Positions 1,813-38,388 of a stretch of DNA of 64,000 nt are shown piece after piece. This DNA comes from Myxococcota bacterium. Lineage in GTDB: Bacteria > Myxococcota_A > UBA9160 > UBA6930. The stretch covers positions 176,052-240,051 of the forward strand of contig JANQFK010000022.1 in assembly GCA_028277885.1 (NCBI GenBank). Direction: 5' to 3'. Position 1 is the first letter of the stretch; the number at the start of each line of letters is the position of its first letter. The notes under the pieces are model-generated. The model made no database searches. It saw only the letters and a program-made list of their open reading frames with translations, and was not told the DNA's origin. Position numbers and translations under genes: made by a program.

Positions 1813-2890
1813 AACGCTGCGCATCGGGCTCCTGCTGGGGGGCTTCCTGGTGGCGGGCCCGGGCGCCGCCCGCGGCGAGACCTGCCTTCCGCCGCTGTTC
1901 GAGGGCGGCCAGCGCCTGGCCCGCATCGGCGAGGCGAGGGTGCTCTGGCTCGGTCTGCTGCTGCGCCAGCACGAGGTCTGCCGGCGTCCGGCGCGCCGCC
2001 CCGGAGAGCTGCGCGTCCTCGTGTTCGGCAACAGCGGCATCTTCGGGTTCCCGCTCCCCGCGGAGCACACCGCCGTCGGCCTCCTGAACCGGCGCTTCGC
2101 CCGCCAGGGCACGCCGGCCCATCTCTACAACCTGGCCTTCCCGTTCACCTACCAGGTGAAGGATGCGGTGATCCTGAGCGAGGCGCTGCGCTACCGCCCC
2201 GACGTCATCGTCTACGGCACCACCCTGGCCGACTACTACCACGTCGCGCCGAACGCCTACCCGCCGCTCGTCGCGTTCTTCGATGCGAACACCGGCGGCG
2301 TGCGGCGTCTCGCCGCCCGGGAGCCGGCCGGACTCGTCGAGCCCATCGACCGCTACCGCGACGCCTATGCAGGGGCCGCGACCCCCTGGCGCAACTTCCG
2401 CCAGCTCGGGCTCTACCTCCGCGAGGGCGCCCGCGAGCTCGGGCTGCATGCGCGCCGACGCTGGTTCCCGGACCTGCCGGACAGCCCCGTCCGCATCGAG
2501 TCCCGCCGGGACCGCTACGACTGCAGAGCGGTGGAGGAGCGCTTCGAGCGCGACTTCGGCGGGTGGCGGGACTGGAGCCTGCTCGCCTTCCTCGGGGAGG
2601 CGGGGCGCCGGACCGGGGCCGAGGTCGTCGTGGTGAACTGGCCGGTGGCTCGCGAGCCCCGTGGCGCCTGCCACAACGTCCGCTACCCGACGCGCGAGCT
2701 CGCGGCGTATCGGCGCTGGCTGCGGGCGGAGACGGCGCGGCTCGGCTTCCGCCTGGTGGACCTCCAGGACCGCTTCGACGCCTCCCTGTTCGTCGACTCC
2801 CTGCACCTCGGCCCGCGTGGACAGCGGGGCGTCGCGGACCTCCTGGAGGCCCCGCTACGGGACGTGCTGCTCGCCCGCAGGCGGCGGTGA
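1781..2890 (+). CDS. SGNH/GDSL-family hydrolase/acyltransferase (DltD/AlgX-like position)
   Basis: 369-aa ORF with an N-terminal signal/anchor LRIGLLLGGFLVAGPGAA. Block I-like VFGNSG and block V-like DSLH. Sits between the micro-ORF and the MBOAT gene. Confidence 0.8.
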   Translation: MRPSSSTWRSRTLRIGLLLGGFLVAGPGAARGETCLPPLFEGGQRLARIGEARVLWLGLLLRQHEVCRRPARRPGELRVLVFGNSGIFGFPLPAEHTAVGLLNRRFARQGTPAHLYNLAFPFTYQVKDAVILSEALRYRPDVIVYGTTLADYYHVAPNAYPPLVAFFDANTGGVRRLAAREPAGLVEPIDRYRDAYAGAATPWRNFRQLGLYLREGARELGLHARRRWFPDLPDSPVRIESRRDRYDCRAVEERFERDFGGWRDWSLLAFLGEAGRRTGAEVVVVNWPVAREPRGACHNVRYPTRELAAYRRWLRAETARLGFRLVDLQDRFDASLFVDSLHLGPRGQRGVADLLEAPLRDVLLARRRR

Positions 2891-2918
2891 CGACGGACCG
2901 CGAGACCGGCCCGACGCG

Positions 2919-4112
2919 ATGATCTTCCTGGACACCTGGTTCTGGATCTTCGCCGCCGTGGCGCTGCCGGGGTACTGGCTGTGTCCGTCCCGGGCGAAGC
3001 TCTACTGGCTGCTCGCCGCGAGCGCGGTCTTCCACTGGCACTTCGCCGGGCCCGCCGGGATGGCGCCCATCCTGGTGCTGGCCGTGATCACCTACGCGGT
3101 GGGGATCGGGATCGCGACCGGCGTCCGGCGCGGCGCCTTCGTAGCGGCTTGCGTCACCCTGGTGGGCGCGTTGGCGTTCTACAAGTACTCGGAGTTCGGC
3201 GCCGGGAGCCTCGCGGGCCTGCTCGGCTGGCTCGATCTCCGCCCCTGGGCCGCCGGTCTCTCGAGCTGGACGGCCCCCGTCGCGCCCCTCGCCATCTCGT
3301 TCTTCACCTTCGAGTTCGTCCACTACCTCTACGAGGTCCGGGTGCACGGCCGCGCACCGATCCGCAACCCCTTCCACTTCGGCGTCTTCGCGATCTTCTT
3401 CCCCTCCCTGGCCTCGGGCCCCATCAAGCGCTTCAACGACTTCGTCCCCCAGCTGGAAGGCCTGCGCAACCCGGGGGTCGACGAGGTCCTCGACGGGGCG
3501 CGCCGCGTGATCCGCGGGCTCTTCAAGAAGGTCTGCATCGCCGACCTGCTGGTGGAGCTGATCGTGATCCTGGAGGAGGTGCCCCACTGGACGCCGCCCG
3601 TCGTGGGCTCCCTGGCCGTGCTCCAGGGCTTCCGCATCTACTACGACTTCGCCGGCTACTCCGACATGGCGATCGGCCTCGCCCGCATGCTGGGCCTGCG
3701 CATCCCCGAGAACTTCGACCGCCCGTACTTCTCGACCAGCCTGCGCGAGTTCTGGCGCCGCTGGCACATGAGCCTCAGCACCTGGATCCGGGACTACGTC
3801 TACGTGCCCCTGGGCGGCAACCGCACCCGCCGGGGCGCCAACCTGCTGATCGCCATGGTGCTGTGTGGCCTGTGGCACGGCGCGGCCTGGAACTTCGCGC
3901 TGTGGGGCCTCTGGCACGGCCTCGGGCTGGCCCTCGAGGCCGGCGTGCGTCGGGCGCGGCCGGCGTGGCTCGAGGCCGGCGGGCCGATGCGCGGGCTCCG
4001 CTGGGCCGTCTGCTACGGCTGGGTCAGCTACGGCTGGCTGCTGTTCTTCTACCCGATCGGCACGGTGGCCGACATGACCGCGGCCTGCCTGGCATGGGCG
4101 TCCGGTGGCTGA
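2919..4112 (+). CDS. MBOAT-family membrane O-acyltransferase (AlgI/DltB-like)
   Basis: Track ORF 2661..4112 trimmed to ATG 2919 (MIFLDTWFWIFAAV...). Polytopic. Carries YYDFAGYSDMAIG and the His-containing signature FWRRWHMSLSTWIRDY. Confidence 0.95.
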   Translation: MIFLDTWFWIFAAVALPGYWLCPSRAKLYWLLAASAVFHWHFAGPAGMAPILVLAVITYAVGIGIATGVRRGAFVAACVTLVGALAFYKYSEFGAGSLAGLLGWLDLRPWAAGLSSWTAPVAPLAISFFTFEFVHYLYEVRVHGRAPIRNPFHFGVFAIFFPSLASGPIKRFNDFVPQLEGLRNPGVDEVLDGARRVIRGLFKKVCIADLLVELIVILEEVPHWTPPVVGSLAVLQGFRIYYDFAGYSDMAIGLARMLGLRIPENFDRPYFSTSLREFWRRWHMSLSTWIRDYVYVPLGGNRTRRGANLLIAMVLCGLWHGAAWNFALWGLWHGLGLALEAGVRRARPAWLEAGGPMRGLRWAVCYGWVSYGWLLFFYPIGTVADMTAACLAWASGG

Positions 4113-5766
4113 GCTCCCGAGGCTGCTGCGCACCTCGCTCCCCGACGCGACCGGAAGCCCCTGGGTGGCCCGCCTGGTGGCGCTGCTCTGCGTGAGCGCC
4201 GCCTTCGAGCTGCTCTTCGTCGGGCACAGCATCAACCGCATGGACGAGGCCTGGCCCCTCTACGCCGCGATGCGGCTGCATGCGGGCGGCGTGCTGTACG
4301 ACGACGTCTTCTGGGTGTTCCCTCCGGGCCACGTCTGGACCGCGTGGCTGGCCTGGTGGCTCGACCCGCCGGGCCTGCTCCTCACCCGCTGCGTGTATGC
4401 GGCGTTCTGCGTGGCGCTGAGCGGCGGCATCTACCTCCTGGCGCGGCGCCTCATGCCCGAGCCCTTCGCGCTGCTGGCCGGGGCGCTCGTCGCCCTGGCG
4501 GCTCCGCGATCGCACCTCGGCCAGATGCTGTTCGGCTACCGCTACCTGATCCTCGCGCTGCTGCCCCTGCTCGCCTACGACCGGCGGCTGCGGGGCGGCA
4601 GCGCGCGCTGGATGTGGGGGGCGGGCGCCCTCATGGGCCTCGCGCTGGTCTTCCGGGTGACGCCGGCCTTCTCGGCGAGCTGCGGCATCGCGGTGGCGCT
4701 CGTCGCCGCCAGCCCCAGCTGGCGGCGTTGCCTCGAGGACGGGCTGCGCTTCGGCGGCGGCCTCGGGATCGTCGTGGCTCCGGTCCTGGCCTGGTTCGCC
4801 ATCAGCGTGGGGCTCGGTCGCCTCTGGCAGGAGGTGATCGCCCACCCCGCGCTGCTGGCGCTGCTCCAGTCCCAGCCCCTGCCGGAGCTGGCCTGGCCCG
4901 GGAGCCTCCGGCGAGCGGCGGTCTGGGACGCCTTCGTCAGCCTGCAGTTCCGGCTCGTCTGGGGGCTCTACCTCGGCTACGCGGTCGCGCTGCTGGTCAG
5001 CTGGGTGCGCGCCCGCCGCGCGGGCCGGCCCTTCGAGCACGGCCTGCTGACCGCGGTCACGGTCCTCGGCGCCGTGTTCTTCCTGCGCTCCCTGACCCGC
5101 TCCGACGAGCCCCACCTCGACTCCGTGATCCCGCCCGCCTGCCTGCTCTTCGCCCACCTCTCGGCCTGGCTCTTCGCCGCCGTCCTTCCGGGCGGAGCGG
5201 AGGGGGAGCGCGGCTGGCGCCCGCGGGCGGCGTGGGCGTGCGCGGCGGGCCTCCTGGCCGCCTGGGTCTACCTGCTCGGGACGGACGTCATGGTGCGGCC
5301 GGAGGTGCGGGGCCACAACGCGCTGCGCAGCGCGCCGGAGACCCGGCTCCGGCGCGCCCACAAGGCCGAGAACATCGACCGGACCGTGGAGCTGCTGGCG
5401 CGGGTGACGCCGCCGGGCGGCGTGGTGCTGAACCTGTCACCTTCGCCGCTGTTCCACGTGCTGACCCGCCGGCCGGGCCCGGGCCATCGCGACCTGCTGA
5501 TGCCGGGGACGTTCCTCGACGAGGGCGAAGAGGGGGCGTTCGTGGAGCGGCTGGAGGCCGCGCCTCCCGACGCGGTGATCTGGCCGGTGCGCGCCTTCGA
5601 CCGCATGCCGTCGCGCTCCGTGGAGGTCACGGCCCCGAAGCTGACCGCCTGGGTGAAGGAGCGCTACGAGTTCGTGCCCGGCCAGACGTGGCCTCGGCCG
5701 ATCCAGCCCGGCGAGCATCGCTGGCTCGTCATGCTGCCCCGCGCAGGGCCCGGGCGCGTGCGCTGA
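4105..5766 (+). CDS. GT-C-like polytopic membrane glycosyltransferase candidate, paralog 1, with C-terminal soluble domain
   Basis: GTG start overlaps the MBOAT stop. About 10 or more TM segments. Acidic first-loop motif NRMDEAWPLYA. C-terminal soluble part contains GPGHRDLLMPGTF and WPVRAFDRM. Colinear with the next gene. Confidence 0.85.
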   Translation: MAELPRLLRTSLPDATGSPWVARLVALLCVSAAFELLFVGHSINRMDEAWPLYAAMRLHAGGVLYDDVFWVFPPGHVWTAWLAWWLDPPGLLLTRCVYAAFCVALSGGIYLLARRLMPEPFALLAGALVALAAPRSHLGQMLFGYRYLILALLPLLAYDRRLRGGSARWMWGAGALMGLALVFRVTPAFSASCGIAVALVAASPSWRRCLEDGLRFGGGLGIVVAPVLAWFAISVGLGRLWQEVIAHPALLALLQSQPLPELAWPGSLRRAAVWDAFVSLQFRLVWGLYLGYAVALLVSWVRARRAGRPFEHGLLTAVTVLGAVFFLRSLTRSDEPHLDSVIPPACLLFAHLSAWLFAAVLPGGAEGERGWRPRAAWACAAGLLAAWVYLLGTDVMVRPEVRGHNALRSAPETRLRRAHKAENIDRTVELLARVTPPGGVVLNLSPSPLFHVLTRRPGPGHRDLLMPGTFLDEGEEGAFVERLEAAPPDAVIWPVRAFDRMPSRSVEVTAPKLTAWVKERYEFVPGQTWPRPIQPGEHRWLVMLPRAGPGRVR

Positions 5767-5850
5767 GGAGCCGGTCTTCCGGCTGGGCCGCACCCGGTGC
5801 CTGGGGTATCAAGGGCGGGCCCGGTCCTCCTCCACCGTTCGGGAACCTCG

Positions 5851-7494
5851 ATGCGGCGCCCTCTCCACAGCACCCTCGCCGATGCGGGAAGCTCGCCCTG
5901 GCTCGGGCGCCTGCTCGTCGTCCTGTGCGTGAGCGTCGCCTACGAGTCGCTCTTCCTCGTCCACAGCCTGAACCGGATGGACGAGTCCTGGCCGCTCTAC
6001 GCCGGCATGCAGCTCCACGCCGGCGGTCGCCTCTACGACGACGTGCTCTGGGTCTTTCCTCCGGGCCACGTCTGGATCGGGTGGCTCTCCTGGTGGCTCG
6101 ATCCACCGGGATTCATCCTGGCCCGGCTCCTGTACTCGGTCTTCGCGGTCGCCCTGTGCGCCGGCGTCTACTTCCTGGCCCGGCGGCTCATGCCCGAGCC
6201 CTTCGCCCTGCTCGCCGGGCTGCTGGTGGCCCTGGCGGCGCCGCGCAGCCACCTCGGCCACCTCCTGTTCGGCTACCGCTACCTGATCCTCGTGGTGCTG
6301 GCGCTCCTCGCCTACGACCGGCGCCTGCGCGGAGGCTCCGCGCTCTGGATGTGGGTGTCGGGCGCGTGGATGGGCGTGGCGCTCACCTTCCGGGTGACGC
6401 CGGCGTTCTCGGCGAGCTGTGGGATCGCGGTGGCGCTCCTCGCCGCCAGCCCGAGCTTCCGTCGCTGCATCCAGGACGGCCTGCGCTTCAGCGGCGGGCT
6501 GGCGATCGTCGTCGTCCCCGTGCTGGCCTACTTCGCGGCGGGCGTCGGGCTGGGACGGCTCTGGCAGGAGGTCATCCTCCACCCGCTCGAGATGCTCCAG
6601 GCGCTCCCGCTGCCGGAGATCCGCTGGCCGTCGGATGGGGGCCGCATCCCCATCTACCGGTTCTTCGTGGCGCTCCAGTTCCGGCTGATCTGGGTGCTGT
6701 ACTTCGGCTACCTCGCCGTCCTGGCGGCGCTCTGGGTGCGGGCGAGGCGCCGCGGCGAGCCCTTCCGCCACGGGCTGCTCACCGCCGTGGTGGTCTTCGG
6801 CGCCGTCTTCTTCGTCCGCTCCACCGGTCGCTCGGACGAGGCCCACCTGGACTCGGTGATCGCTCCGGTCTGCCTCGTGTTCGCCCACCTGTCGGCCTGG
6901 CTCTTCACCGCTCTCTGGCCCGGCGACGGGAGCGGCGGGGCGGGCTTCGGCTGGCGATCGGTCTCGGCCCACGGGCTCGGCGCGGCGTTGCTGGGGAGCT
7001 GGATCTTCCTGCTGGGCGTGGACGAGTCCAGCCGGCTGCGGGTGCGCGGCGGCTGGCCCCTCGAGAGCGTGGGCGGGACGATCCTCATGCAGCCCCGCTT
7101 CCACGTGGAGAACATCGACCGCGTGGTCCGTCTCATCGAGGAGGCCACGCAGCCCGACGATCGGATCCTCAACCTGTCGGCGACGCCCATGTTCCACGTG
7201 TTGACGGGTCGCCTGGGCCCGGGCCACCGGGACCTGATCATGCCCGGCACCTTCTTCGACGACGCCGAGGAGCGCCGCTTCCTGGCCCGGCTCCGCTCCG
7301 ATCCTCCCGCCGCCGTGGTCTGGCCCGTGCGCGCCTTCGATCGCATGCGCTCCCGCTCCCACAAGGCGACGGCGCCGCGGGTCACGGCCTGGGTGGAGCG
7401 GAACTACGAGAAGCTGCCGGGTCAGGAATGGGACGAGCCGATCCACCGCGGTGAGCTGCGCTGGTTCGTCCTCGTGCCGCGAGGCGCTCCTTGA
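5851..7494 (+). CDS. GT-C-like polytopic membrane glycosyltransferase candidate, paralog 2
   Basis: Track ORF 5797..7494 trimmed to ATG 5851 (MRRPLHSTL...). Colinear with 4105-5766 and sharing long identical blocks (NRMDESWPLYA, ARRLMPEPFALLAG, FRVTPAFSASCGIAVAL, GPGHRDLIMPGTF). Confidence 0.85.
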   Translation: MRRPLHSTLADAGSSPWLGRLLVVLCVSVAYESLFLVHSLNRMDESWPLYAGMQLHAGGRLYDDVLWVFPPGHVWIGWLSWWLDPPGFILARLLYSVFAVALCAGVYFLARRLMPEPFALLAGLLVALAAPRSHLGHLLFGYRYLILVVLALLAYDRRLRGGSALWMWVSGAWMGVALTFRVTPAFSASCGIAVALLAASPSFRRCIQDGLRFSGGLAIVVVPVLAYFAAGVGLGRLWQEVILHPLEMLQALPLPEIRWPSDGGRIPIYRFFVALQFRLIWVLYFGYLAVLAALWVRARRRGEPFRHGLLTAVVVFGAVFFVRSTGRSDEAHLDSVIAPVCLVFAHLSAWLFTALWPGDGSGGAGFGWRSVSAHGLGAALLGSWIFLLGVDESSRLRVRGGWPLESVGGTILMQPRFHVENIDRVVRLIEEATQPDDRILNLSATPMFHVLTGRLGPGHRDLIMPGTFFDDAEERRFLARLRSDPPAAVVWPVRAFDRMRSRSHKATAPRVTAWVERNYEKLPGQEWDEPIHRGELRWFVLVPRGAP

Positions 7495-9371
7495 GGCGGA
7501 GCGTGCCGCTCGGTGCGCTGCTGGTCCTCGCCGTGGTCGTCGGGTCCGCGCTCCACCTGTCGCGCGGCTCCCGGCTCAGCGTGGACTGGGTGGACGAGGG
7601 CCAGATCGTGTACCCGGCCTGGCGCGTCTCCGAGGGCGCGCTGCCCTACCGGGACTTCCGCCACCTCTACGGACCCTCGCTCTTCTTCGTGAACGCCGCG
7701 CTCTTCGAGCGCTTCGGCGTCGACCTCGCCGTGCTCCGCAACCTGATGGTCGGGCTCAAGGCCGCCATGGTCGGGCTCGTCTTCCTCGCGGCGCGGGCGG
7801 TGGCGCCGCTGCCGGTGGCGCTCGGGCTGGCGCTGCTCCTCGCGGCCGTGTGGGGCTGGCCGGCCGCGCACCTGAACACTCCCTACGCGAGCTACTACGG
7901 CCTGCCGCTCGCGCTGGCGGGGATGCTCCTGCCCCTGGCCCTCCCGCGCCGGCCGAGGGCCGCCTGGTGGCTGGCGGGCCTGGCGATCGGGACGGCCGCG
8001 ACCTTCAAGCAGACCAACGGGCTGTTCCCGGCCCTGGCCCTCGCGCTGCTCTCGCTGGCCCGCTCCCGGCCCGGCGCCGACGGGGCTCCGCCCGGGGCGC
8101 TCCAGGCCCGCGCCGCCGCCGTGCTGCGCGGAGCCGCGTTCGTGGCCTGCGTGGCCTTGCCGGTCTACTACCTGCGGGGCTCCACGCTCGGAAACGCGGC
8201 CCTGCTGGCCGGGCCGTGGCTGCTGTGCTGCGCCGCGGTGGGGCTCCGGGAGTGGCGAACGCCGCCGGACCCCCGGGAGCGCGCCGCCTCGGCCACGGAG
8301 CTGCTGGGCCTCGCCGCCGGCCTGGTGGTGGCTCCGGCCGCCTACGCGCTCTTCTACGCGGGGCAGGGCGCGCTGCCCGCCCTGGTGGCGGACACGGTGA
8401 CCGAGATGCCCGCGCTGATCCGCTGGTTCGTTCCCCTGGAGGCACCGGGGTCCCTGGCCGTGCTCTGGGTCGCCTGCCTGCTCGGCGCCGCGGGCGCGGG
8501 CGTCTCGTCCCGGCCCCCGCGGCTTCGCGCCGGCGTGGGCGGGCTCTCGCTCGGGGGTCTCGCGCTGGCGAGCGTCGCGTTCCTGCGAGAGGAGGCCTTC
8601 TCGGGCCTGGTCTCGGGGCTGTTTCCGCTGCTCCCCCACGTCGTCACGTGGCTCGCCCTGGCGACCTGGCTACGCGGCGGAGCGCGTCTCGGCGAGCGCG
8701 AGCTGCTCGTGCTCCTCCTCGCCGCCAGTGGGCTGCTCTACCTCTACCCCGCGGCGGACTGGGCCCACGCCTACACCAGCCTGCCGGTCTTCCTCCCCGC
8801 CCTGGGCCTCCTGCTGGCCCGGCCCTTCGCCGCGGGGCTCGCCCGCAGCCGGACGATCTACCTCGCGACCCTGGCCGTCGCGGTGGGGCTCTTCCTCGCG
8901 GTGCCCTTCGTCCTGATCCAGCGCGACTACGCCGCCCTGCGCGGGCGCCCGCTCCCCCAGCGGGCCAGCGGGATCCGCGTGCCCGGCGCCATGCACCGCG
9001 ACCACGTGGCCCTCGCCGCCGCGCTGCTCTCCGACCGCCACCGCGAGCGCGACGTCGTCGTGCTCTCGGGCCAGCACCTGCTCTACTTCGTCAGCGGGCG
9101 CGTGTCGCCCCTCGAGGAGCACGAGTTCGCCCTCTACCTGAACCGCTTCGAGGGCATCTCGGGCGAGGACCTGCGACGGCTCGTGGACCAGGACGCGGTG
9201 GTGGCGCGGCTCGAGGCGACCCGCCCGCTGCTGGTCGAGGACTACCAGGGCGCGGGCGCCCGCCTGCGCCGGCAGCTGCCCCGGCTGGGCCGCTACATCG
9301 AGCGGCGCTACCGGGAGCAGAGCCGGGTCGGCGGGCTGCGCATCCTCGACCGGCGGGAGCCGGCCCGCTAG
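7491..9371 (+). CDS. GT-C-like polytopic membrane protein, third more divergent member of the array
   Basis: TTG start overlaps the previous stop (alternative GTG at 7503). First-loop VDWVDEGQIVYPAW. Many TM segments followed by a C-terminal soluble region. Confidence 0.8.
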   Translation: MRRSVPLGALLVLAVVVGSALHLSRGSRLSVDWVDEGQIVYPAWRVSEGALPYRDFRHLYGPSLFFVNAALFERFGVDLAVLRNLMVGLKAAMVGLVFLAARAVAPLPVALGLALLLAAVWGWPAAHLNTPYASYYGLPLALAGMLLPLALPRRPRAAWWLAGLAIGTAATFKQTNGLFPALALALLSLARSRPGADGAPPGALQARAAAVLRGAAFVACVALPVYYLRGSTLGNAALLAGPWLLCCAAVGLREWRTPPDPRERAASATELLGLAAGLVVAPAAYALFYAGQGALPALVADTVTEMPALIRWFVPLEAPGSLAVLWVACLLGAAGAGVSSRPPRLRAGVGGLSLGGLALASVAFLREEAFSGLVSGLFPLLPHVVTWLALATWLRGGARLGERELLVLLLAASGLLYLYPAADWAHAYTSLPVFLPALGLLLARPFAAGLARSRTIYLATLAVAVGLFLAVPFVLIQRDYAALRGRPLPQRASGIRVPGAMHRDHVALAAALLSDRHRERDVVVLSGQHLLYFVSGRVSPLEEHEFALYLNRFEGISGEDLRRLVDQDAVVARLEATRPLLVEDYQGAGARLRRQLPRLGRYIERRYREQSRVGGLRILDRREPAR

Positions 9372-11245
9372 GGCGCGGGCGTCAGGTCCAGGAACAGCGA
9401 GATGTACTCGCCGTTCTTCGACACCTCCACCAGGCCGAGCTGCAGTCCCAGGAAGTCCGGCAGCGGGAACGACTCGAGCGAGGTCAGGAGATCCGGCAGG
9501 GCCGAGGGCAGGATGCCCTCGAGCAGGCTCTCCACCGTCGCCTCGAAGATGCCGAGCTTGTCCCGGATGATGTCGACGTTGATCTCCTGGGCCACCACGG
9601 CGCCGAGCGTGAAGGAGAGCTCGCCGGCCGCGAACGTGATGTCGAGCCCCACGGTCAGGTCCACCACGCCCTGGAGGTACGTCTTCAGGTTGTTGTTCCG
9701 GATGTTCACCTGGAGCTGGGCGATGCGCATCTCCGCGAGCTCGCCCAGGGGTCCGGGCGCGCCCGTGATGAGCGGGGCCGTGGTCGGCCGCAGCTCGAGC
9801 ACGAGGGCCTCGTCCGGGTCCACGGTGCCGAACTCGGGGATGACCGACGCCAGCACGCCGGCGGTGAGCGGCACCGGGTCCGGGATGACGGGCGGGATCG
9901 CGATCTCGTTGATGTTCTGGATCAACAGGCCGCTCTCGATCTCGGCCTTGAGGAGCTGGTTGAAGGCCGAGGTGGAGAGGGAGATCGCGAGCTCGTAGGG
10001 GAGCGCGCCCGGACTGAGCGCCTCGCAGGTGCCGCCGGGACAGTTCGCGTCCACGTCGCAGGCGTTGCCGTCGTTGCTCCCGCCGACGCAGTGGGCGAAG
10101 GACGGGAAGGGCTCCGGGATGTGGTAGGAGGCCGTGAGATCCACCGCCATGGGGTCGGGCATGGAGGCCGTGATGCGTGCGTCGGAGTCGAGGGTGAGGC
10201 CCTCGACGTCCTCGAACACGTCGAAGAGCGGCGTCTCGAGGCTCACGCCGACGGCCTGGCCGAGGGGGCCCGAGATCTCGATCTCGGCCAGGGCCAGCTC
10301 GACCTCGTCGGCGATGGGGCCGTCGAGGGGCCCGGAGCCGTCCGGATCGTTCAGGAAGCCGGCGAGGGCTCCCTGCACCTCGGCGGTGACGTCGCTCTCG
10401 ATGATCCCGAAGAACTGCGCCACCTCGCACAGGAAGCCCGAGGTGATCTCGAAGTCGAAGCCGGTCCCGCCGAAGCTGAGGTTCCCCTGCTGGACGACGT
10501 CGATCAGGCTGGGATCGCCGGCGTCGGCCTGGAGGTCGTAGACGCCGTCCACCTCGACCAGGCTGCTGGTGATGCGACCGTCGCAGTTCGGAGCCAGGAA
10601 GCCCTGGCCGTCGAGGAAGACGTTCACGACCACGTTGTTGAGGTCGATGTTGGCCGCCACGTTGCCGTTGGACAGGGCGTCGATGTCGAGGCCGAAGGGC
10701 TGGCTGAACGACGGCGCCGGGTTGCGGACCGAGATGTCGAAGTCCCACACCGCTTCGACGGTGAGCAGGAAGAGGCCCACGGGCACCAGGGTGGCGAGAT
10801 CGATGCTGATGCCCGACTGGACGATCGACTGGGCCTCGTCGAGGCCCGAGTCGTTGAGCCGCAGGGCGACGCCCATGGGGGAGAAGGCGCCGTCGGCGAT
10901 CGACTCGCCCTGGAAGACGGTGACGCGGTCGCGCACGTCCTTGTTGGCGAAGCCGTAGGTGTACCGGACCAGGATCGGGTTCACGATGTCGGTGAGGTTC
11001 ACCGTCGCCGAGAAGGAGCCGCCGCCGCCCACGGGGGTGACGACGCCGTTCACGCGCAGCGTGCCGTCGGCTCGCGGGTTCAGCACGACACCGGCAACGG
11101 ACACGCTCGTCGCCGTGGTGAAGATGCCGTGGTCCGGGGTCGCGATGACGACCCTCGGGTCCGGCGTGCCGCAGGGCATGCCGAGCAGACCGAGGACGGA
11201 GACGGCGACGAGAGCCGCGAGCGAGGAGCGGGCGCGCTGGTTCAC
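9368..11245 (-). CDS. secreted lipoprotein: N-terminal Ig-like domain, then a possible BPI/LBP/CETP-like (TULIP) lipid-binding fold with a Cys-rich insert
   Basis: Track ORF 9368..11473 trimmed to GTG 11245, preceded by GGGGGA. Signal peptide VNQRARSSLAALVAVSVLGLLGMPC. Visibly lower GC, rich in N/I/F/D. C-terminus is FPLPDFLGLQLGLVEVSKNGEYISLFLDL. Confidence 0.85.
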   Translation of the reverse strand: MNQRARSSLAALVAVSVLGLLGMPCGTPDPRVVIATPDHGIFTTATSVSVAGVVLNPRADGTLRVNGVVTPVGGGGSFSATVNLTDIVNPILVRYTYGFANKDVRDRVTVFQGESIADGAFSPMGVALRLNDSGLDEAQSIVQSGISIDLATLVPVGLFLLTVEAVWDFDISVRNPAPSFSQPFGLDIDALSNGNVAANIDLNNVVVNVFLDGQGFLAPNCDGRITSSLVEVDGVYDLQADAGDPSLIDVVQQGNLSFGGTGFDFEITSGFLCEVAQFFGIIESDVTAEVQGALAGFLNDPDGSGPLDGPIADEVELALAEIEISGPLGQAVGVSLETPLFDVFEDVEGLTLDSDARITASMPDPMAVDLTASYHIPEPFPSFAHCVGGSNDGNACDVDANCPGGTCEALSPGALPYELAISLSTSAFNQLLKAEIESGLLIQNINEIAIPPVIPDPVPLTAGVLASVIPEFGTVDPDEALVLELRPTTAPLITGAPGPLGELAEMRIAQLQVNIRNNNLKTYLQGVVDLTVGLDITFAAGELSFTLGAVVAQEINVDIIRDKLGIFEATVESLLEGILPSALPDLLTSLESFPLPDFLGLQLGLVEVSKNGEYISLFLDLTPAP

Positions 11246-11521
11246 GGAGATCCCCCAGACCGGACGAGAGCCCGTCGGCTCGCGTTGCCGGCTGCTTTCC
11301 CGGCCGACGCGGCCGGGCTCATTGTTGCAGGGCGCCTGGGGGAAGGGCGTGCGGCGCCTGAACCCTCGGGCGCCCTGGAGAGGAGAGGTCGCTGCTCCGC
11401 CGCCTCTCGACCTCGCAAATTGGGCGATATCACACCGCCGTGTCAAGGATTTTCTGCACCACCCCCGGCGCAACGGGGCCCCGTTTGGAGGGCGATGGAG
11501 GGCGATGGCAGGGGTCCGACG

Positions 11522-12895
11522 TCAGCGCAGGTAGCCGAGAGCCTCGAGCGCGTCCCGCGTCCCGGCGTCCAGCGAGGGCTCCGGCAACCCGCGGGGGTCG
11601 GGCAGGCTCGCCTCGACGCGCGAGAGCTCGAGGGAAAGCGCCTCCGGCACCCGCGGGTCCGCGGGCCCGAGCGGCTCCCGCTCGCCGGGATCGCGATCCA
11701 GCCGGTACCAGGTGTGGCTCCCGTCCGTGTGGACCAGGAGCTTCCACGGGCCCCGGAGCAGCGCCCGGCGGTGCTGGCTGCGCCCCTTCAGGAGCTCCAG
11801 CACGAGGTCGCGCTCGGGGAGCGCCCCCTCGGCGAGCAGGTTCCGGCCGCGCATGCCGGGCGCGGCCTCGACCCCCGCCAGGGCGAGCAGGGTGGTCGGG
11901 ACGTCGAGCAGGTCCACGGCCTCGTCGCGCCGCGCCCCGACGCCGGGGCGCCGGAAGTCGCGCAGAGCGAGGGGCGCTCGCAGCACCTCGTCGTGGAGGG
12001 TCAGGCCGTGGCCCCAGCCGCCGTGGTCGCCGAACTCCTCGCCGTGGTCCGCAGTCACCACCACGACGGCGTTGCGGGCGAGGCCGCGGCGCTCGAGCTC
12101 CGCCAGCAGCTCGCCGAGGGCCGCGTCCACCTGTGCCACCTCGGCGTCGTACAGGTCGAAGAGCCAGCGGCGCTCCTCGGCATCGGGCTCGCGCCCGGTC
12201 CTCGCCATCTCGATCAGGGCATCGGTGCTGACGCCGTCGGGGCGCTCGCCCGCGTCCCGGCGGAAGGTCTCCCGGAAGGGGCGCGTCGGTGCGTAGGGGG
12301 TGTGGGGGTCCACGTAGTGGACGTACAGGAACAGGGGGCGCGTGGTCTCGGCGGGCAGTCGGCGCAGCAGCCGCTGGTTCACCTCACGCGCCCGCGGAAG
12401 GCGGAGGCTCTGGCGGCGCCCCCCCAGCTCGATCTCCAGGGTGTCGAGGAAGGCCCCCGCCGGCGCCGGCATCATCAGCGGCTCGAAGACGTCGAAGCCC
12501 CGCGCGAAGCCGAAGCGCTCGGCGACCTGGATCGGGTTCCCCGAGACCGCGATGGTGTGGTAGCCGGCGTCGCGCAGTAGCTCGGCCAGCACGGGCACCG
12601 CGTCGTCGAGGCCGTCGCCGAGCCGCGCGATGCCGTGCTCGGAGGAGAGCCGCGACGTGAAGAGCGATCCCACCGAGGGCTTCGTCCAGGAGCTGGGTGC
12701 GAAGGCGCGGGTGAAGAGGACGCCCTCGGCGGCGAGACCGTCGAAGCTCGGCGAGGTGGGACGGTCGTGTCCGTAGGCGCCGAGGCGGTCGGCGCGCAGG
12801 GTGTCGACGACGACCAGGACGAGGTGCGGGGGCGCGGCGGGCCCCTCGCCCGCACAGGCGATCAGCGCCGCCAGGCACCCGAGCCCGACCCGCAC
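11522..12895 (-). CDS. sulfatase-fold (alkaline-phosphatase superfamily) lipoprotein, Thr at the nucleophile position
   Basis: Track ORF 11522..14431 trimmed to GTG 12895 (VRVGLGCLAALIAC lipobox). Motifs VVVDTLRADRLG, SSWTKPSVGSLFTSR..HGI, VVVTADHGEEFGDHGGWGHG. C-terminal tail is ALEALGYLR*. Confidence 0.9.
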   Translation of the reverse strand: MRVGLGCLAALIACAGEGPAAPPHLVLVVVDTLRADRLGAYGHDRPTSPSFDGLAAEGVLFTRAFAPSSWTKPSVGSLFTSRLSSEHGIARLGDGLDDAVPVLAELLRDAGYHTIAVSGNPIQVAERFGFARGFDVFEPLMMPAPAGAFLDTLEIELGGRRQSLRLPRAREVNQRLLRRLPAETTRPLFLYVHYVDPHTPYAPTRPFRETFRRDAGERPDGVSTDALIEMARTGREPDAEERRWLFDLYDAEVAQVDAALGELLAELERRGLARNAVVVVTADHGEEFGDHGGWGHGLTLHDEVLRAPLALRDFRRPGVGARRDEAVDLLDVPTTLLALAGVEAAPGMRGRNLLAEGALPERDLVLELLKGRSQHRRALLRGPWKLLVHTDGSHTWYRLDRDPGEREPLGPADPRVPEALSLELSRVEASLPDPRGLPEPSLDAGTRDALEALGYLR

Positions 12896-12903
12896 CGCGC
12901 GGC

Positions 12904-14418
12904 TCAGGGTCGCTCCGTCGACTCCTCGTCGAGGGTGGTGATCTCGGCCTCGAGGAGGAACTGGTAGGCGAACAGGGAGGGCCAGAGCCGCGCCAGGGCG
13001 TGGTAGGCCGAGGCGATCCCGCGCACCAGCCGGCTGCGCCCGGTGGACTCGAACACCACCTCGAAGGGCAGGGCGGTCACGCGCTGGCGCAGGATGCGGA
13101 AGCCGGCCTGCTCCACGGCGCGCCGGAAGCTGCTGCGGGTGTAGAGGTGGACGTGGGTCTCGTCCAGGACGCCGCGGGGCCCGTACTCGAAGCGGCCGGC
13201 AAGGAGCGAGAGGCGGTAGAACCAGAGCGCCACGTTGGGGGTCGAGATCAGCAGCCGCCCCTCGGGCTTGAGGTAGCGCCGCACCCCGCGCAGCACCTCG
13301 GTGCGGCTGCGCAGGTGCTCGATCACGTCGGAGCAGATCACGTAGTCGAAGACGCGGCCCGTGGGCAGCTCGAGGGGCTGCTCGAGGTCGCGCTGGTGGA
13401 AGGCGTGCAGGTCCTCGGTGAGCCGGCGCGGCGCCTCGAGGTCCACCCCCGTCACCTCGACGCCCTTCTGGCGCAGCGGCCGCGCCAGCAGCCCCTGGGA
13501 GCAGCCCAGGTCGAGCACCCGGCTGCCCGGCTCGATGGCGTCCACGATCTGCATGTGGGAGCCGGTCGGGCTCCGCTTGAGCGTGTAGTGGACGTCGGGC
13601 TCGACGAAGTAGCTGCCGCTGCGCGTGAGGTGGAGCTGGTGGAGCCGGTAGTCGAGGGCGGCGGCGGTGAAGCGCAGCACGTGGAGGAGCCCGCGCGGGC
13701 TGGAGGGGTACTCCTTCCAGCTCGGCGGGAGCGGCACCTCGACCACGGGTGCGCCCAGGGCCCGGCACTGGACCAAGGTCTGCATGTCGAAGACGCGGTC
13801 GTCGGCGTTCAGCTGGAACGGGATCGCGCGCAGGGCGCGGGCCGCGTACACGCGGAAGCCCGAGTGGTAGTCGCCGAGGCGCAGGCCCAGCAGCCGGTTC
13901 TGGACCGCGGTGGCGGCGAGGTGCGCGATCCAGTGGGGCAGGCGCACCTCGGGCCGCTCGCGCTGCATGCGCCGGGTGGCGATCACGAGCGCGCCGGGCT
14001 CCGCGAGGGCGGCCTGGAGCAGCTCCGGCAGGGCCTCGCCGGGGTGGCGCCCGTCGCCCCGCATCGTCACCGCGAAGTCGAAGCCCCGGAGCAGCACGTA
14101 CTCGAAGGCCGACTTGCGCGCCGCGCCGGCGCCGGGCTCGCCGGGGGTGCGGTGGATGCGGATCTCGAGCCGTCGCTCGGGTGCGAGCTCGCGGAGCGGC
14201 GACGAGAGGTCGCCGGCCCCGGGCTCGGGCACCACCACGAGCTCCTCGATGCAGTCGTCGAGGGCGGCGGGGATCGCCTCGATGCTGCGGCGCAGCAGCG
14301 CGGCGTCGGCGACCGAGAACAGCAGCAGGGCGATGCGCGGGAAGCCCTCGCCGCGCTCGCGCCGGGTGCGCAGCAGCGTCTCGAGGGGCTTCTCGCCCGC
14401 CTGGGGGTCCGCGGCCAT
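12904..14418 (-). CDS. bifunctional GT2-like glycosyltransferase / class I SAM-dependent methyltransferase
   Basis: Track ORF 12904..14619 trimmed to ATG 14418 (MAADPQAGEKPLE). N-terminal half is DPM1/GtrB-like (TMRGDGRHP, DYHSGFRVY). C-terminal half has VLDLGCSQG, ICSDVIEHL and LKPEGRLLISTPN. Confidence 0.9.
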   Translation of the reverse strand: MAADPQAGEKPLETLLRTRRERGEGFPRIALLLFSVADAALLRRSIEAIPAALDDCIEELVVVPEPGAGDLSSPLRELAPERRLEIRIHRTPGEPGAGAARKSAFEYVLLRGFDFAVTMRGDGRHPGEALPELLQAALAEPGALVIATRRMQRERPEVRLPHWIAHLAATAVQNRLLGLRLGDYHSGFRVYAARALRAIPFQLNADDRVFDMQTLVQCRALGAPVVEVPLPPSWKEYPSSPRGLLHVLRFTAAALDYRLHQLHLTRSGSYFVEPDVHYTLKRSPTGSHMQIVDAIEPGSRVLDLGCSQGLLARPLRQKGVEVTGVDLEAPRRLTEDLHAFHQRDLEQPLELPTGRVFDYVICSDVIEHLRSRTEVLRGVRRYLKPEGRLLISTPNVALWFYRLSLLAGRFEYGPRGVLDETHVHLYTRSSFRRAVEQAGFRILRQRVTALPFEVVFESTGRSRLVRGIASAYHALARLWPSLFAYQFLLEAEITTLDEESTERP

Positions 14419-14494
14419 GACGCTCCAGCATAGGCGATGGCGGGCGGCGGGGTCCCAGGGCGCGGGCGGGCTCCGCGAGCTGAAGGGGGCAGGG

Positions 14495-16198
14495 TCAGGG
14501 AGCGGTCGGGGCCAGGCAGCGGGTCGGATCCAGGCGCGCCCACCCGAAGCCGCGCGCGCGTTCCAGCTCCACCACGCAGCCGCCTCCCCGCGCGCGGTCG
14601 AGGGCGGGCAGCGGCGCATAGAGGCGCGCCCCCCAGCCGCCGAAGGCCAGGCGCACCTCGGGGCCGCGCCGGATGCCGAGGTCCGGGAAGGCGCGGTCCG
14701 CTGCGCGGAGGTAGTCGAAGACGTGGTCCGCGCTCTGGGGGCGCTTCGGGTTCCCGCGCATGCGCCAGGCGTGGATCACCACCACGTCGACCCGGTCCCA
14801 GCGGAAGCGCGAGATCACCGCGTCCTCGAAGGTGTGGCTGCCGGCGAACTTGGCCGGGTCCCAGCGCGCCGGGGCGTCGGCCGACCCCAGGGTCTGCATC
14901 GCGAGCCGCGCCGGGTGGAAGTGCGGCATCAGCACGAAGTAGGTCTCCTCGTCGACCAGCAGCACGCCGGGCCGCGCGCGGGTCTCGGCCAGGAAGGCGC
15001 CGGCCCGCTCCACGCTGGCCCGGGGCACCACGCCCTCCAGGTGGCGCCGCGAGTCGAGCTGCGCGGTTCCCGCCAGGCTGCGCAGCGGAGCCGGGTAGGC
15101 GAGCAGCCCGGCGAGCACGGCGAGCGCGGCCCAGCGCCAGGGTGCCGGCGCCGTCGCCGCGGCGACCACGCCGTGCGCGATCCCCGGCAGCAGGATCGGA
15201 GCGAGCCAGATCGAGTGGCGGGACTCGCCGAAGGGGAACACCGCCGCCAGCGAGAGCGTCACCGCGGCGGCGACGCCGAAGAGGGCGAGGGCCGGCAGCA
15301 GCAGGGCGCGGCGGCGGAGCGCGGCGACGAGCCCCACCCCGAGGAGCAGCACGGCGAGGGCGTCCCAGGCGGGATCGATCCAGTAGCGCAGCACGCCCAC
15401 GCCGCCCTCGAGCAGGCCGGCGAGGTCGGCGTGGAAGTACGGCCGCAGCCAGGTGGCGCGGGCCGAGCGCAGGTGGTCGCCTCCCACCAGCGTGGCGTTC
15501 ACGTGGCTCCACCACAGCCAGAGCACCCCGGCGAGGGCGGGCAGCTGGACGCCCGCCAGGGTGACGAGACGCCGCCGCTCGAGGGCGCCGGCCAGCCAGA
15601 GCAGGCCCGCCGCGCCGCTCGCCGCCGCCGCGAACAGCCACGAGCCGTAGTGGATCGCGATGGCGACGGCGAGCAGCGCACCCCAGGCCACGGCGTCCCG
15701 GGGCCGGCCGTGGCCGGCGAAGCGCGCCAGCAGCCACAGCCCGACGGCCAGCACCAGGAGCTGGAGCGTGTAGGGCCGGATCACCTGGGACTGGGCGATG
15801 GCGCCGGGGGAGATCGCGAGCAGGAGCGCCGCGACGAGCCCCGTCGGCGTGCCGAGCAGGGCGCGGGCCGCGGCGTAGAGGGCGGGAACCGCGAGCACGC
15901 CGCAGAGCAGGGCGGGTGCCCGCAAGGCCTCGAAGTCGAGGCTCAGCGCCCCGGCGGCGCGCACCACCAGGAAGAACAGCGGTGGGTGGGCGTTGCTCGC
16001 GACCTCGGTCGCGAACCGCTCCCACGAGGGCCAGCTCGCCGCCGAGTAGTAGATGCCCTCGTCGGGGTTGAGCCAGAACCCGAGGAAGCCCGGCAGGCGC
16101 AGGCCCAGGGCGACGAGGGCGAGGGCCGCCACCGCGAAGGGCGCGAGCCGCTCGAGCCACTCGAGCCGGGCGGGCGCCTCCGGGGGCGTTGCGGGCAT
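14495..16198 (-). CDS. GT-C family glycosyltransferase (ArnT/PMT-like)
   Basis: 567-aa polytopic protein. First-loop motif WLNPDEGIYYSAA. C-terminal soluble domain. Confidence 0.85.
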   Translation of the reverse strand: MPATPPEAPARLEWLERLAPFAVAALALVALGLRLPGFLGFWLNPDEGIYYSAASWPSWERFATEVASNAHPPLFFLVVRAAGALSLDFEALRAPALLCGVLAVPALYAAARALLGTPTGLVAALLLAISPGAIAQSQVIRPYTLQLLVLAVGLWLLARFAGHGRPRDAVAWGALLAVAIAIHYGSWLFAAAASGAAGLLWLAGALERRRLVTLAGVQLPALAGVLWLWWSHVNATLVGGDHLRSARATWLRPYFHADLAGLLEGGVGVLRYWIDPAWDALAVLLLGVGLVAALRRRALLLPALALFGVAAAVTLSLAAVFPFGESRHSIWLAPILLPGIAHGVVAAATAPAPWRWAALAVLAGLLAYPAPLRSLAGTAQLDSRRHLEGVVPRASVERAGAFLAETRARPGVLLVDEETYFVLMPHFHPARLAMQTLGSADAPARWDPAKFAGSHTFEDAVISRFRWDRVDVVVIHAWRMRGNPKRPQSADHVFDYLRAADRAFPDLGIRRGPEVRLAFGGWGARLYAPLPALDRARGGGCVVELERARGFGWARLDPTRCLAPTAP

Positions 16199-16250: not shown

Positions 16251-18368
16251 TCAGGGGCGGCTCAGCTCCACCAGGCCGAGGAGCGCCTGGGCGGGCGGGG
16301 CCGAGGGGTCCCGCGGCCGGCGGCTGCGCTCGACGTACTCGCGCACGAGGCGCAGCTGGAGTCGGGAGCGCGGATCCTCGGGCGCGAGCGCCATCAGCGC
16401 GCGCGCCTCGACGAGGGCCTGCACCGGGCGGTCGAGTCGCAGCAGGTCGTAGACGAGTCGCTGGCGCGGCCGCCTCGCGTCGGGGTCGAGGGCGATGAGG
16501 GCGCGCTCGGCCGCGATCGCCTCCTCGTAGGCGCCCAGCCGGGCGTAGCTCCAGCCGCGCAGCGCGAGGTCCCGGGGGTGCTCGGGCTCGCCGTCCGGGC
16601 GGCTGCGCAGCAGGGCGTCGGCGGCCGGGCCGCGCACCCAGCCCCAGCGGCGCGCCCACTCGGGGCGCTCGCGGATCACCCGCGCCGGGTCGACGCCCTG
16701 CTCGGCGTCGAAGGGGACGCGCTGGGTCCGGTACCAGGCCTCCACCCGGGCGAGGTTCGCCGCGTTGCTCTCGTTGCGGCGCAGGTAGAGGGCGTCCTTC
16801 ACCGTGCGCCAGACGGGCAGCCAGCCCGGTGCGCGCTCCAGGTGGGCCGAGGTGTAGTGGCGGTCGCCGGGCGCCCCCGTGCCGTGGAAGACGTCGACGC
16901 CGCGCCGGTCGAGCAGCCCGAGGAGGTCCTCGCCGGCCTTCCCCCCGCGCCGCTCCTGCGCGGCCAGGTAGTCCTCGAAGACGTCGAGGCCGTAGTGCTC
17001 GGTGCGGCTGTCGATGAAGGTGCGCAGGCGCGGCGCCAGCCGGTAGCCGAGGAAGCCCCCCATCGCGTAGCTGTTGAACAGGTTGCCCTCGAGACCGGTC
17101 TCCTCGAGGAAGCGCACGCTCTCGCCGTGGAACTTCCGCACGTCCCAGGTGGCCTCGAGGTAGGCGGCCGGCGCGCGCGGAATCCGGGCGAGCCGCGCGC
17201 GGTGGAAGGGCACCTGGGGCATCGCCACGGCGAGGGCCGCGGCGATCCCCGCAGCCGCCCAGGCCAGGGCCCGGCTGCGCGGCGCGGGACCGGCGAGGCG
17301 CAGGGCGCGCAGCACGTAGAGGAGCGGGAAGATCCCCATCCACAGGAAGCGCACGGACGCGAGGGCGGCCAGCACGGCGGCGGACGCGACGCCGAGCAGC
17401 AGCGGGTCCGCGGGAGCGAGGGTCTCCCGCCCGGGGCGGCGCAGGAAGCGGAGCGAGACGGCGAGGGCGCTGGCCGCGAAGAGGAGCAGCACCGCGTCCG
17501 CGAGCCCCCAGGCCAGCACGCTCACCGAAGGCGCCGCGGGCGGGGAGAAGGGATCGAAGCGGGCCCACTCGTCGATCACGGCCCAGATGGCGCTCTCCGC
17601 CGAGGAGGTGAAGAAGGTGAGGTGCTGGCCGATGCCGCGCGGGTTCAGCAGGCTCGCCGCCAGGGCGAGGCCGAGGGCCACGGCGAGGCGCCGGGCGTGG
17701 CGCGCCTCCCGGGCGGGCTCCACCCCGACCTCGGCGCCGCGCGCGCCGGCCCAGCGCGCCAGGCCGACGCGCAGCGCGATTCCCATCAGCGCCGCCACGC
17801 CCAGCAGCGGACCGAGGGCGAAGAGCGAGTGGGCGTTGGCCCAGAGCCCGATCCCCACCGCGCTCGCCGCCACCACGCCCCAGCCCGGCCGCCGCCTCGG
17901 CGCCAGCAGCCCGCTCCACACGAGCAGGGTGGCGGGGATGCTGACGAGATCCGGGCGCAGCTGCATCAGCCGGGGCCAGGCCAGCACGGCGAACACCGCC
18001 GTCGCCGCCGCGGCCTCGGCGAGGCCCGGGCTCTCGCGGCGCAGGGCTGCGAGCCCCAGCCCGAGGATGCCCACCACGGCGAGCACGTGGGCGACGCGCA
18101 GCCCGTCGAGGCCGGCGAGCACCTCGACGCCGTGCACGCCCACGCCGAAGAGCCACTCGTGCTGCACCGGCGCGTCGTCGTGGGCGGTGTGGAGGAGCGG
18201 GTCGCCGTCGGGCCAGGGCCCCTCGCGGGCGTAGACCTCGCCCATGGCGAGGTGCCACCAGAGGTCGTTGGTGCGCAGCGGGCCGCCACACAGGTAGAGG
18301 AGCTGGAGCGCGAGGAGCGCGAGGCCGAGGAGCGCCGCGACGTCTGCGCCGCGGCCGGGTCGCTTCAT
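16251..18368 (-). CDS. polytopic membrane protein with C-terminal TPR-like region (putative GT-C-type transferase or polymerase)
   Basis: Track ORF 16251..19904 trimmed to ATG 18368 (MKRPGRGADVAALLGLALL...). Motif LRTNDLWWHLAMGEVY. More than 10 TM segments. The tail has TPR-like helices (GWSYARLGAYEEAIAAERALIALDP). Confidence 0.85.
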   Translation of the reverse strand: MKRPGRGADVAALLGLALLALQLLYLCGGPLRTNDLWWHLAMGEVYAREGPWPDGDPLLHTAHDDAPVQHEWLFGVGVHGVEVLAGLDGLRVAHVLAVVGILGLGLAALRRESPGLAEAAAATAVFAVLAWPRLMQLRPDLVSIPATLLVWSGLLAPRRRPGWGVVAASAVGIGLWANAHSLFALGPLLGVAALMGIALRVGLARWAGARGAEVGVEPAREARHARRLAVALGLALAASLLNPRGIGQHLTFFTSSAESAIWAVIDEWARFDPFSPPAAPSVSVLAWGLADAVLLLFAASALAVSLRFLRRPGRETLAPADPLLLGVASAAVLAALASVRFLWMGIFPLLYVLRALRLAGPAPRSRALAWAAAGIAAALAVAMPQVPFHRARLARIPRAPAAYLEATWDVRKFHGESVRFLEETGLEGNLFNSYAMGGFLGYRLAPRLRTFIDSRTEHYGLDVFEDYLAAQERRGGKAGEDLLGLLDRRGVDVFHGTGAPGDRHYTSAHLERAPGWLPVWRTVKDALYLRRNESNAANLARVEAWYRTQRVPFDAEQGVDPARVIRERPEWARRWGWVRGPAADALLRSRPDGEPEHPRDLALRGWSYARLGAYEEAIAAERALIALDPDARRPRQRLVYDLLRLDRPVQALVEARALMALAPEDPRSRLQLRLVREYVERSRRPRDPSAPPAQALLGLVELSRP

Positions 18369-19573: not shown

Positions 19574-19730
19574 GAGCCCCCGTTGCGGAGAAGCTGCTGG
19601 AAGGGCGCCAAACATACCCGAGGGTGCGGGCTCGGCTCCGCCCCGGCCTCAAGAGCGGACGGCGGGCCTCCGATCCCGTCCGGGTCCCCGTGCGCCGGGC
19701 CCCGCCTCCGGCCCGATCGAGGAGACGACC

Positions 19731-32235: not shown

Positions 32236-32254
32236 CGGCTTGCGCTTTCGGGGG
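32236..32254 (+). repeat. conserved intergenic motif, copy A (CGGCTTGCGCTTTCGGGGG)
   Basis: Near-identical to copy B at 52827-52845 and related to copy C at 61825-61840. All three are in gaps upstream of plus-strand operons. Confidence 0.5.
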
Positions 32255-32472
32255 TCCCGAGGGCGGGGCGCGGTAGCCCACCCGGGCTGCGGCGTTGCTC
32301 CCGCGCCCGGGCCCTCTACGTTGGCCGGAAATCGTCGCTGCGGGTTCCGCCTCCGCCCCGATTCTTCCGATACGCATGGGAGGACCGGAGGCCCGGCGGC
32401 GGGCATCCACACGGTCCGGAGGGCCCGGGAACGCAGCGCCCGGGGAGCCTAGGAGTGGGGGCGAACGGCAGC

Positions 32473-38388
<5,916 letters not shown>

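Follow-up and report, generated by a model that had tools for sequence, protein, structure and literature searches.

Proteins of the BPI/LBP/CETP/PLTP group (PF01273 plus PF02886; PDB 1ewf, 4m4d and 2obd) are secreted and are built over their whole length as double TULIPs. TULIP lobes enclose apolar pockets for lipid tails, by which lipids are extracted, held and delivered across water (PMC5507252; bioRxiv 10.1101/2025.09.09.675085). Double TULIPs of the BPI/CETP type were treated until recently as a eukaryotic invention, and a review of 2017 knew only single-domain TULIPs in bacteria and no evidence yet for the dimerisation of prokaryotic TULIPs (PMC5507252). One Bdellovibrio structure has been added since, that of TipA of Bdellovibrio bacteriovorus, a bacterial double TULIP that works with a beta-sandwich partner, the separate protein TipB, by which it is opened; the same authors noted double TULIPs with fused beta-rich domains in the AlphaFold database, one of them with its sandwich predicted to lie on helix A of the N-terminal lobe (bioRxiv 10.1101/2025.09.09.675085). 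Here we describe a gene for a predicted protein of this kind in a stretch of 64,000 nucleotides (nt) from a Myxococcota bacterium (contig JANQFK010000022.1, positions 176,052 to 240,051), which is called the window below and to whose numbering all coordinates refer.

The gene lies on the minus strand at 9368-11245 and is complete, with a GTG start and a stop codon at 9368-9370. It encodes 625 amino acids (aa). We read the product as an exported, probably N-terminally lipid-tethered protein, in which an Ig-like domain is followed by a double TULIP of BPI type and which would bind or transfer lipids in the envelope or in the extracellular space. To this reading we assign a probability of about 0.75; the binding of lipid itself, and the ligand, we infer by analogy with the described systems.

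The open reading frame (ORF) is a real gene, and its product carries a signal peptide. Public data contain one protein identical to it (P0001), an independent contig (L001) carries a gene called with the same limits, and 180 relatives of about 610 aa are 38-49% identical to it across its full length, so the frame is not a chance one. Its GC content at third codon positions is 0.94, which is what a genuine gene of this genome should show, the window having 72-78% GC. A Shine-Dalgarno-like element, GGGGGA, can be read at 11251-11256 on the minus strand, 5 nt upstream of the GTG. The longest possible ORF would begin with a TTG at 11473, but this start was rejected, because the 60 aligned relatives begin a few residues before the signal core; their N-termini align with the GTG region, and 11245 was therefore taken as the start. 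Where the source names these relatives they are labelled "hypothetical protein", except for single labels derived from a domain. A preliminary description of this DNA, made from its letters, had quoted six peptides of the protein, and all of them were located in the translation (aa 20-25, 218-238, 265-299, 385-408, 421-441 and 593-621).

The predicted fold supports the comparison with BPI. An AlphaFold2 model, for which the 60-sequence alignment was the input, has a mean pLDDT of 89.8 and a pTM of 0.85, and its secondary structure shows the strand-helix-sheet-helix pattern of TULIP domains in two copies. In this model the two TULIP lobes are joined via a central sheet to form a boomerang-shaped double barrel. 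When the model was compared with the PDB by Foldseek, the five best matches were BPI, LBP and CETP (E 1.5e-21 to 3.7e-17), with about 535-570 alignment columns and TM values of 0.49-0.62 (target-normalised). BPI 1ewf stood at the top (E 1.5e-21, TM 0.62 normalised to BPI, 535 columns), with LBP at 4e-20 and CETP at 3.7e-17, and identity in the structural alignments with BPI, LBP and CETP was about 13%. The next match was the botulinum protein P47 (2.9e-9), after which came the single-TULIP lipid binders Der p 7, SPLUNC1/BPIFA1, Takeout, beta-carotene-binding protein and JHBP. The two-lobed barrel of BPI type proposed in the preliminary description is thus borne out by the model and by its best structural matches: the AlphaFold and Foldseek check suggested there yielded an elongated double barrel, and neither another fold nor an unrelated family came out of it.

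All parts of the protein can be placed on the model and on the minus strand of the window. The Ig-like beta-sandwich, of the Glucodextranase domain B type, covers aa 30-117 (10895-11158) and has eight strands between residues 31 and 117 with pLDDT of 94-98. Pfam recognizes it as PF09136 (Glucodextran_B) at aa 30-110, with 27.2 bits against a cut-off of 27 (E 3.6e-6) and with matches in 51 of the 60 relatives, and Foldseek matches the same domain with glucodextranase 1ug9; the Ig-like N-terminal domain of the preliminary description is in this way confirmed. The N-terminal TULIP lobe, aa 118-300 (10346-10894), was delimited by the secondary structure of the model and by the Foldseek span over full-length BPI, LBP and CETP. 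It is predicted to consist of a strand (122-131), helix A (132-145), a long twisted sheet (159-269) and helix B (271-298). Between the lobes the secondary structure leaves a central region, aa 301-420 (9986-10345), of which residues 301-375 are among the best-conserved stretches of the family (column conservation 0.71-0.76). The C-terminal lobe, aa 421-625 (9371-9985), was defined by PF02886 and by comparison of the family profile with BPI. Its predicted elements are a strand (419-423), helix A' (425-437), which carries the motif SAFNQLLKAE.ESGLL, long strands (480-562), helix B' (568-590) and two closing strands (601-623), and it includes the FPLP tail.

Is the likeness to BPI visible in the sequences as well? 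For the C-terminal lobe, the family shows that it is. PF02886 (LBP_BPI_CETP_C) aligns collinearly with the protein (aa 424-604 on profile positions 42-219 of 238; 12.6 bits, E 0.095), a match that taken singly would be no more than a hint. When the relatives were scanned singly, 17 of 60 matched PF02886 at E<=0.01, and eight orthologues with 40-45% full-length identity to the query reached 27.6-41.9 bits against the cut-off of 23, covering profile positions 39-236 of 238. A profile of the 60 family sequences was run against 177,635 distinct PDB sequences, and its sole match was human BPI (E 0.029), collinear with BPI residues 272-447 and including the FPLP motif. Here the family tail "sFPlPdfLG" is aligned with "GFPLPTPAR" of BPI, and F593, P594 and P596 are invariant in the family alignment, so the resemblance of the C-terminus to BPI tails, pointed out earlier, proves to be a true aligned motif. 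With the single query sequence, phmmer found nothing meaningful in the PDB, and an NCBIfam scan of the protein gave no match. An hhalign comparison of the N-terminal lobe with the C-terminal one detected no mutual sequence similarity, as in BPI.

Several results weigh against our reading. The protein itself stays under the gathering score of PF02886 (12.6 against 23 bits), and PF01273, the N-domain family of BPI, was without a match among the 60 relatives, also at E<=10. When 13 mammalian BPI C-domain fragments, a shallow alignment, were compared with the family by hhalign, the match was collinear and weak (E 0.021, probability 2%). The residues before the candidate lipidation site read G-M-P-C, and the proline at position -1 violates the lipobox rule [LVI][ASTVI][GAS]-C. 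The protein is very acidic, which is the opposite of the cationic BPI and LBP. Finally, no conserved neighbour pointing to a ligand or a pathway was found over 51 loci. The Pfam search recommended in the preliminary description therefore had a divided outcome, since eight orthologues pass the PF02886 threshold while the query remains below it and PF01273 is unmatched. From the scores of the orthologues, the single PDB match with BPI and the silence of PF01273 we conclude that the sequence link is real for the C-terminal lobe at the level of the family and absent for the N-terminal lobe. The C-terminal lobe is accordingly related to LBP_BPI_CETP_C by sequence, as judged via its orthologues, and the likeness of the modelled N-terminal lobe to BPI is one of fold only.

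The signal peptide, aa 1-24 (11174-11245, minus), has a basic n-region with R4 and R6, a hydrophobic core, AALVAVSVLGLLGM, and a predicted helix at residues 4-21, and it is supported by the aligned N-termini of the 60 relatives. It is followed by Cys25 (11171-11173, minus), the candidate lipid-attachment site, in the atypical lipobox L-G-M-P-C. A Cys directly after the hydrophobic region is kept in 59 of the 60 relatives, and the residue before it is G, A or S in 33 of these 59 (56%), with the family consensus L-G-A-x-C. Such conservation is hard to explain except by lipidation. Lipoprotein status is thus probable for the family and uncertain for the window protein, and both the lipidation of Cys25 and the cellular location we infer. 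The claim of a lipoprotein made in the preliminary description keeps its signal peptide and its conserved Cys; what it loses is a canonical lipobox.

In the mechanism that we propose, two tubular lobes, each formed by a long twisted beta-sheet around a long helix, would stand back to back through the central sheet, and the apolar interior of each would take up acyl chains or whatever else is hydrophobic in a lipid. With lipid extracted from a membrane in this way, the protein would keep it bound or carry it across the water of the envelope or of the extracellular space. Its site of action would be the envelope or the cell surface, where it would either be held by its N-terminal lipid or be released. 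The Ig domain may serve as a stalk or spacer, or perhaps regulate the N-terminal lobe as part of the same chain; more speculatively, the fused domain could have a regulatory role like that of TipB.

With BPI, LBP, CETP and PLTP the window protein would share the double-TULIP architecture over the whole protein, the secretion and the sequence link in the C-terminal lobe (FPLP tail and helix A'). Unlike them, it is bacterial, carries an additional Ig sandwich on the N-terminal side and probably a lipid anchor, has an N-terminal lobe outside PF01273, is acidic and not cationic, and has a larger central region (aa 301-420) with a clade-specific four-Cys insert. TipA (Q6MK73) is likewise a bacterial, signal-peptide-bearing, BPI-like double TULIP that is functionally tied to a small beta-sandwich; TipA was not among the Foldseek matches in the PDB. 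The difference lies in the sandwich, which in the window protein is fused N-terminally and is of the Glucodextranase-B/Ig type, whereas TipB is separate and C2-like. A separate sandwich in the operon, as in the case of TipB, was also looked for, and no conserved small neighbour was found in the 51 loci. P47 and OrfX2 of Clostridium botulinum (PDB 5wix and 6ekt) are bacterial and TULIP-built as well (Foldseek E 2.9e-9 and 1.1e-7), but their TM values are 0.29-0.31, their root mean square deviations are 15-17 A, and the gene has no neurotoxin or orfX context. YceB of the DUF1439 type and other single-domain bacterial TULIPs (PMC5507252; PMC6791001) are comparable as bacterial TULIPs, and YceB was deposited as a lipoprotein; these are, however, single TULIP domains without a detectable sequence link to PF02886, in contrast to the full pseudo-dimer of N- and C-terminal lobes predicted here.

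None of the 60 relatives lacks either of the cysteines C221 and C273 (codons 10583-10585 and 10427-10429; span 10427-10585, minus). In the model C221 stands at the start of a long strand of the N-terminal lobe and C273 at the start of helix B. Their invariance and positions make a fold-stabilising disulfide likely, probably one that ties the strand to the beginning of helix B. The pair recalls the conserved N-domain disulfide of the BPI family. A second cysteine feature of the N-terminal lobe, a disulfide-bonded CX8-9C hairpin, is found in 56 of the 60 relatives and is missing in the window protein, P0002 and P0007 (aa 158-182, window positions about 10700-10774).

The four-Cys insert of the central region, HCVGGSNDGNACDVDANCPGGTCE, is 24 aa long (aa 385-408; 10022-10093, minus) and is modelled with pLDDT of 89-93. 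It is a clean indel, present in five of the 60 sequences, namely the window protein and its nearest carriers P0003, P0005, P0006 and P0010, and it occurs in the window as a single copy, not as a repeat. Neither Pfam (whole protein at E<=10, a 40-mer at E<=1) nor NCBIfam gave a match for it, and its assignment to DUF4215 (PF13948) or to the Myxococcus Cys-rich repeat TIGR02232 was rejected for lack of a profile match. The preliminary description had compared it with the Cys-rich repeat of secreted proteins in Myxococcota; the Cys-rich segment is there, but in one clade only and outside the defined Cys-repeat profiles. Beside the homologue in the Binatia locus L049 we observed, at 7921-10023 on the plus strand, the gene of a secreted protein of 700 aa with a long Pro/Thr-rich linker and several four-Cys modules, for example CSGGTNAGVICTSNAKCSGGGTC. 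These modules are of the same kind as the insert in the window, and their host protein is otherwise unrelated to ours. The insert has the look of a small decoration, mobile and knotted by disulfides, of a type widespread in these bacteria and outside the defined Myxococcus repeat family.

The family is large: when 1.84 billion representatives were searched exhaustively with its profile, the clusters (defined at 50% identity) numbered at least 338 with E<=1e-30 and 1028 with E<=1e-10. In data with one genome per species the gene was found in 45 loci, all from metagenome-assembled genomes and none from a cultured isolate, and most of them labelled Myxococcota, Deltaproteobacteria or Binatia. The opinion expressed earlier that bacterial members of this fold class are rare is therefore out of date, in view of these hundreds of clusters and of the reported TipA structure (bioRxiv 10.1101/2025.09.09.675085).

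Practically every relative has the Ig sandwich fused on its N-terminal side. In the longer ones the profile matches always begin at the Ig domain, therefore Ig plus double TULIP is the conserved unit. Before or after this core the longer relatives carry seven DUF4215 repeats, ten EGF/cbEGF repeats, bacterial TSP3 repeats, two legume-lectin domains or DUF642, and the DUF4215 repeats are N-terminal extensions in those relatives that have them. Since all these modules are extracellular, they support a site of action that is exported, at the surface or outside the cell. As individual examples, the core is fused to ten EGF/cbEGF repeats, two legume-lectin domains or seven DUF4215 repeats in P0155 (1366 aa), P0089 (1060 aa) and P0126 (1249 aa). 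EGF_CA arrays so large are unusual in bacteria.

If the protein shares the fold of BPI and LBP, then we can ask: Could it also share the role of BPI, as a weapon secreted by a predatory or competitive bacterium of Myxococcota type, which binds and permeabilises the outer membrane or lipopolysaccharide (LPS) of other cells? The protein is secreted, the lectin, EGF and TSP3 modules of its relatives could target foreign surfaces, and the family is concentrated in metagenome-assembled genomes labelled Myxococcota. Moreover, TipA binds and destabilises bilayers, and a similar role was proposed for it in the predation of Bdellovibrio (bioRxiv 10.1101/2025.09.09.675085). However, the mature protein has 19 K/R against 81 D/E (net charge about -62), its N-terminal lobe has only 3 K/R against 26 D/E, and there is no counterpart of the cationic N-terminal lobe or tip with which BPI and LBP bind LPS. 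This strong acidity is common to all 60 relatives. It argues against anionic LPS as a ligand bound in the manner of BPI, and an acidic surface would rather favour zwitterionic, neutral or cation-bridged ligands. In addition, the double-TULIP gene has no conserved neighbours of the toxin, immunity or secretion-system kind, and a lipid anchor would retain the protein on the cell that produces it. We consider a role as a weapon very unlikely.

The neighbourhood of the gene suggests another explanation, in which the protein is a dedicated carrier of an acylated glycolipid or polyketide-lipid made by nearby GT-C, MBOAT, GDSL, GT2-methyltransferase, sulfatase and polyketide synthase (PKS) genes. The surroundings were accurately given in the preliminary description, where such a link with the glycan/PKS locus had been favoured. 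On one side of the gene, on the plus strand, lie a GDSL-like protein (1781-2890), an MBOAT protein (2661-4112), two weak PMT_2-type membrane proteins (4105-5766 and 5797-7494), which cluster together as paralogues in the ORF clustering, and a membrane protein of 626 aa without a Pfam match (7491-9371). On the other side, on the minus strand, there are a sulfatase-family gene (11522-12970), a GT2-methyltransferase fusion (12904-14619), a PMT_2 protein (14495-16198) and PMI (18365-19615), and a type I PKS lies at 32236-38388 on the plus strand. The gene thus has three membrane proteins, PMT_2-type or similar, on one side and the sulfatase-family gene on the other, and a sulfatase neighbour is shared with one other locus only (L006). 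Against such a carrier speaks the rest of the family. Gene context was studied by four look-ups in long contigs, where the neighbours were unrelated to those in the window, and by all-against-all clustering of ORFs over 51 loci: over the 50 other loci no neighbour family occurs in more than 12, and none of the recurrent families occurs in the window. Furthermore, the gene is convergent with its downstream neighbour, is separated by 276 nt from the sulfatase-family gene upstream, and is 21 kb away from the PKS. The link with the glycan/PKS locus is not sustained by these data, and we regard a carrier dedicated to it as having a still smaller chance than a weapon.

The ORF clustering also dealt with partners in general. 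A conserved operon partner, whether TipB-like or a lipid enzyme, was rejected, none being family-wide across the 51 loci. A DUF4079 membrane protein is directly downstream of the double-TULIP gene in eight loci, and an FG-GAP/UnbV_ASPIC protein lies within a few kb in seven others (L005, L011, L017, L024, L026, L048 and L049), in varying orientation; both recurrences may stem from the common ancestry of the genomes instead of a link in function. In its behaviour the gene is a unit that stands alone.

Least probable of all is a structural or adhesive surface protein that has kept the TULIP shape and lost lipid binding, as in some TULIPs with non-tubular interiors, for although the Ig-like domain and the fusions with adhesive modules in relatives would suit it, the lobes, for all the acidity of the surface, are rich in hydrophobic residues (45-47% AVLIFMW), every one of the best structural matches is a lipid carrier, and helix A' of the C-terminal lobe is strongly conserved. 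All three of these explanations are less well supported than an exported Ig plus double-TULIP protein for the binding or transfer of lipids.

As bacterial double TULIPs are already documented by TipA, the window protein is not a new category. Its family is a much larger and entirely unannotated bacterial group, which keeps a sequence link to the eukaryotic C-terminal domain, in which the Ig sandwich is always fused, and to whose core lectin, EGF or Cys-repeat modules are often added. For the gene in the window, a confident annotation replaces "hypothetical protein". The members of the family are tractable candidates for learning which lipids are moved in diderm envelopes or between cells, how double TULIPs are opened and where the eukaryotic family comes from. 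It is a bold and rather unlikely idea that the eukaryotic BPI/LBP/CETP proteins have in this family an ancient prokaryotic sister group or even their source, with the fused Ig domain as a TipB-like gate that opens the N-terminal lobe for loading with lipid. If this were true, the duplication giving TULIP-N and TULIP-C would predate the eukaryotes, as opposed to a recent transfer from them.

Some minor features of the window may be added. The gene and its convergent neighbour at 7491-9371 overlap by 4 nt in their stop codons (9368-9371), so that no terminator would fit between the two. On the upstream side of the gene, the gap of 276 nt contains a perfect 8-bp hairpin composed of G and C only, CCCGGCCG-ACG-CGGCCGGG (11299-11317); as a terminator of the upstream gene it was rejected, since there is no T-tail on the strand of the double-TULIP gene. 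The GT2-methyltransferase fusion overlaps the start of the sulfatase-family gene and combines a weak GT2 region with a strong class-I methyltransferase domain (Methyltransf_23, 96 bits). Large polytopic membrane proteins are clustered around the gene, three of them matching PMT_2 (GT-C, ArnT-like), two of these below the gathering score. A 2-oxoglutarate (2OG) oxygenase gene is located at 633-1577 on the minus strand. The PKS consists of a single module, KS-AT-KR-DH-ACP, and has a stretch similar to AMP-binding_C ahead of its carrier domain.

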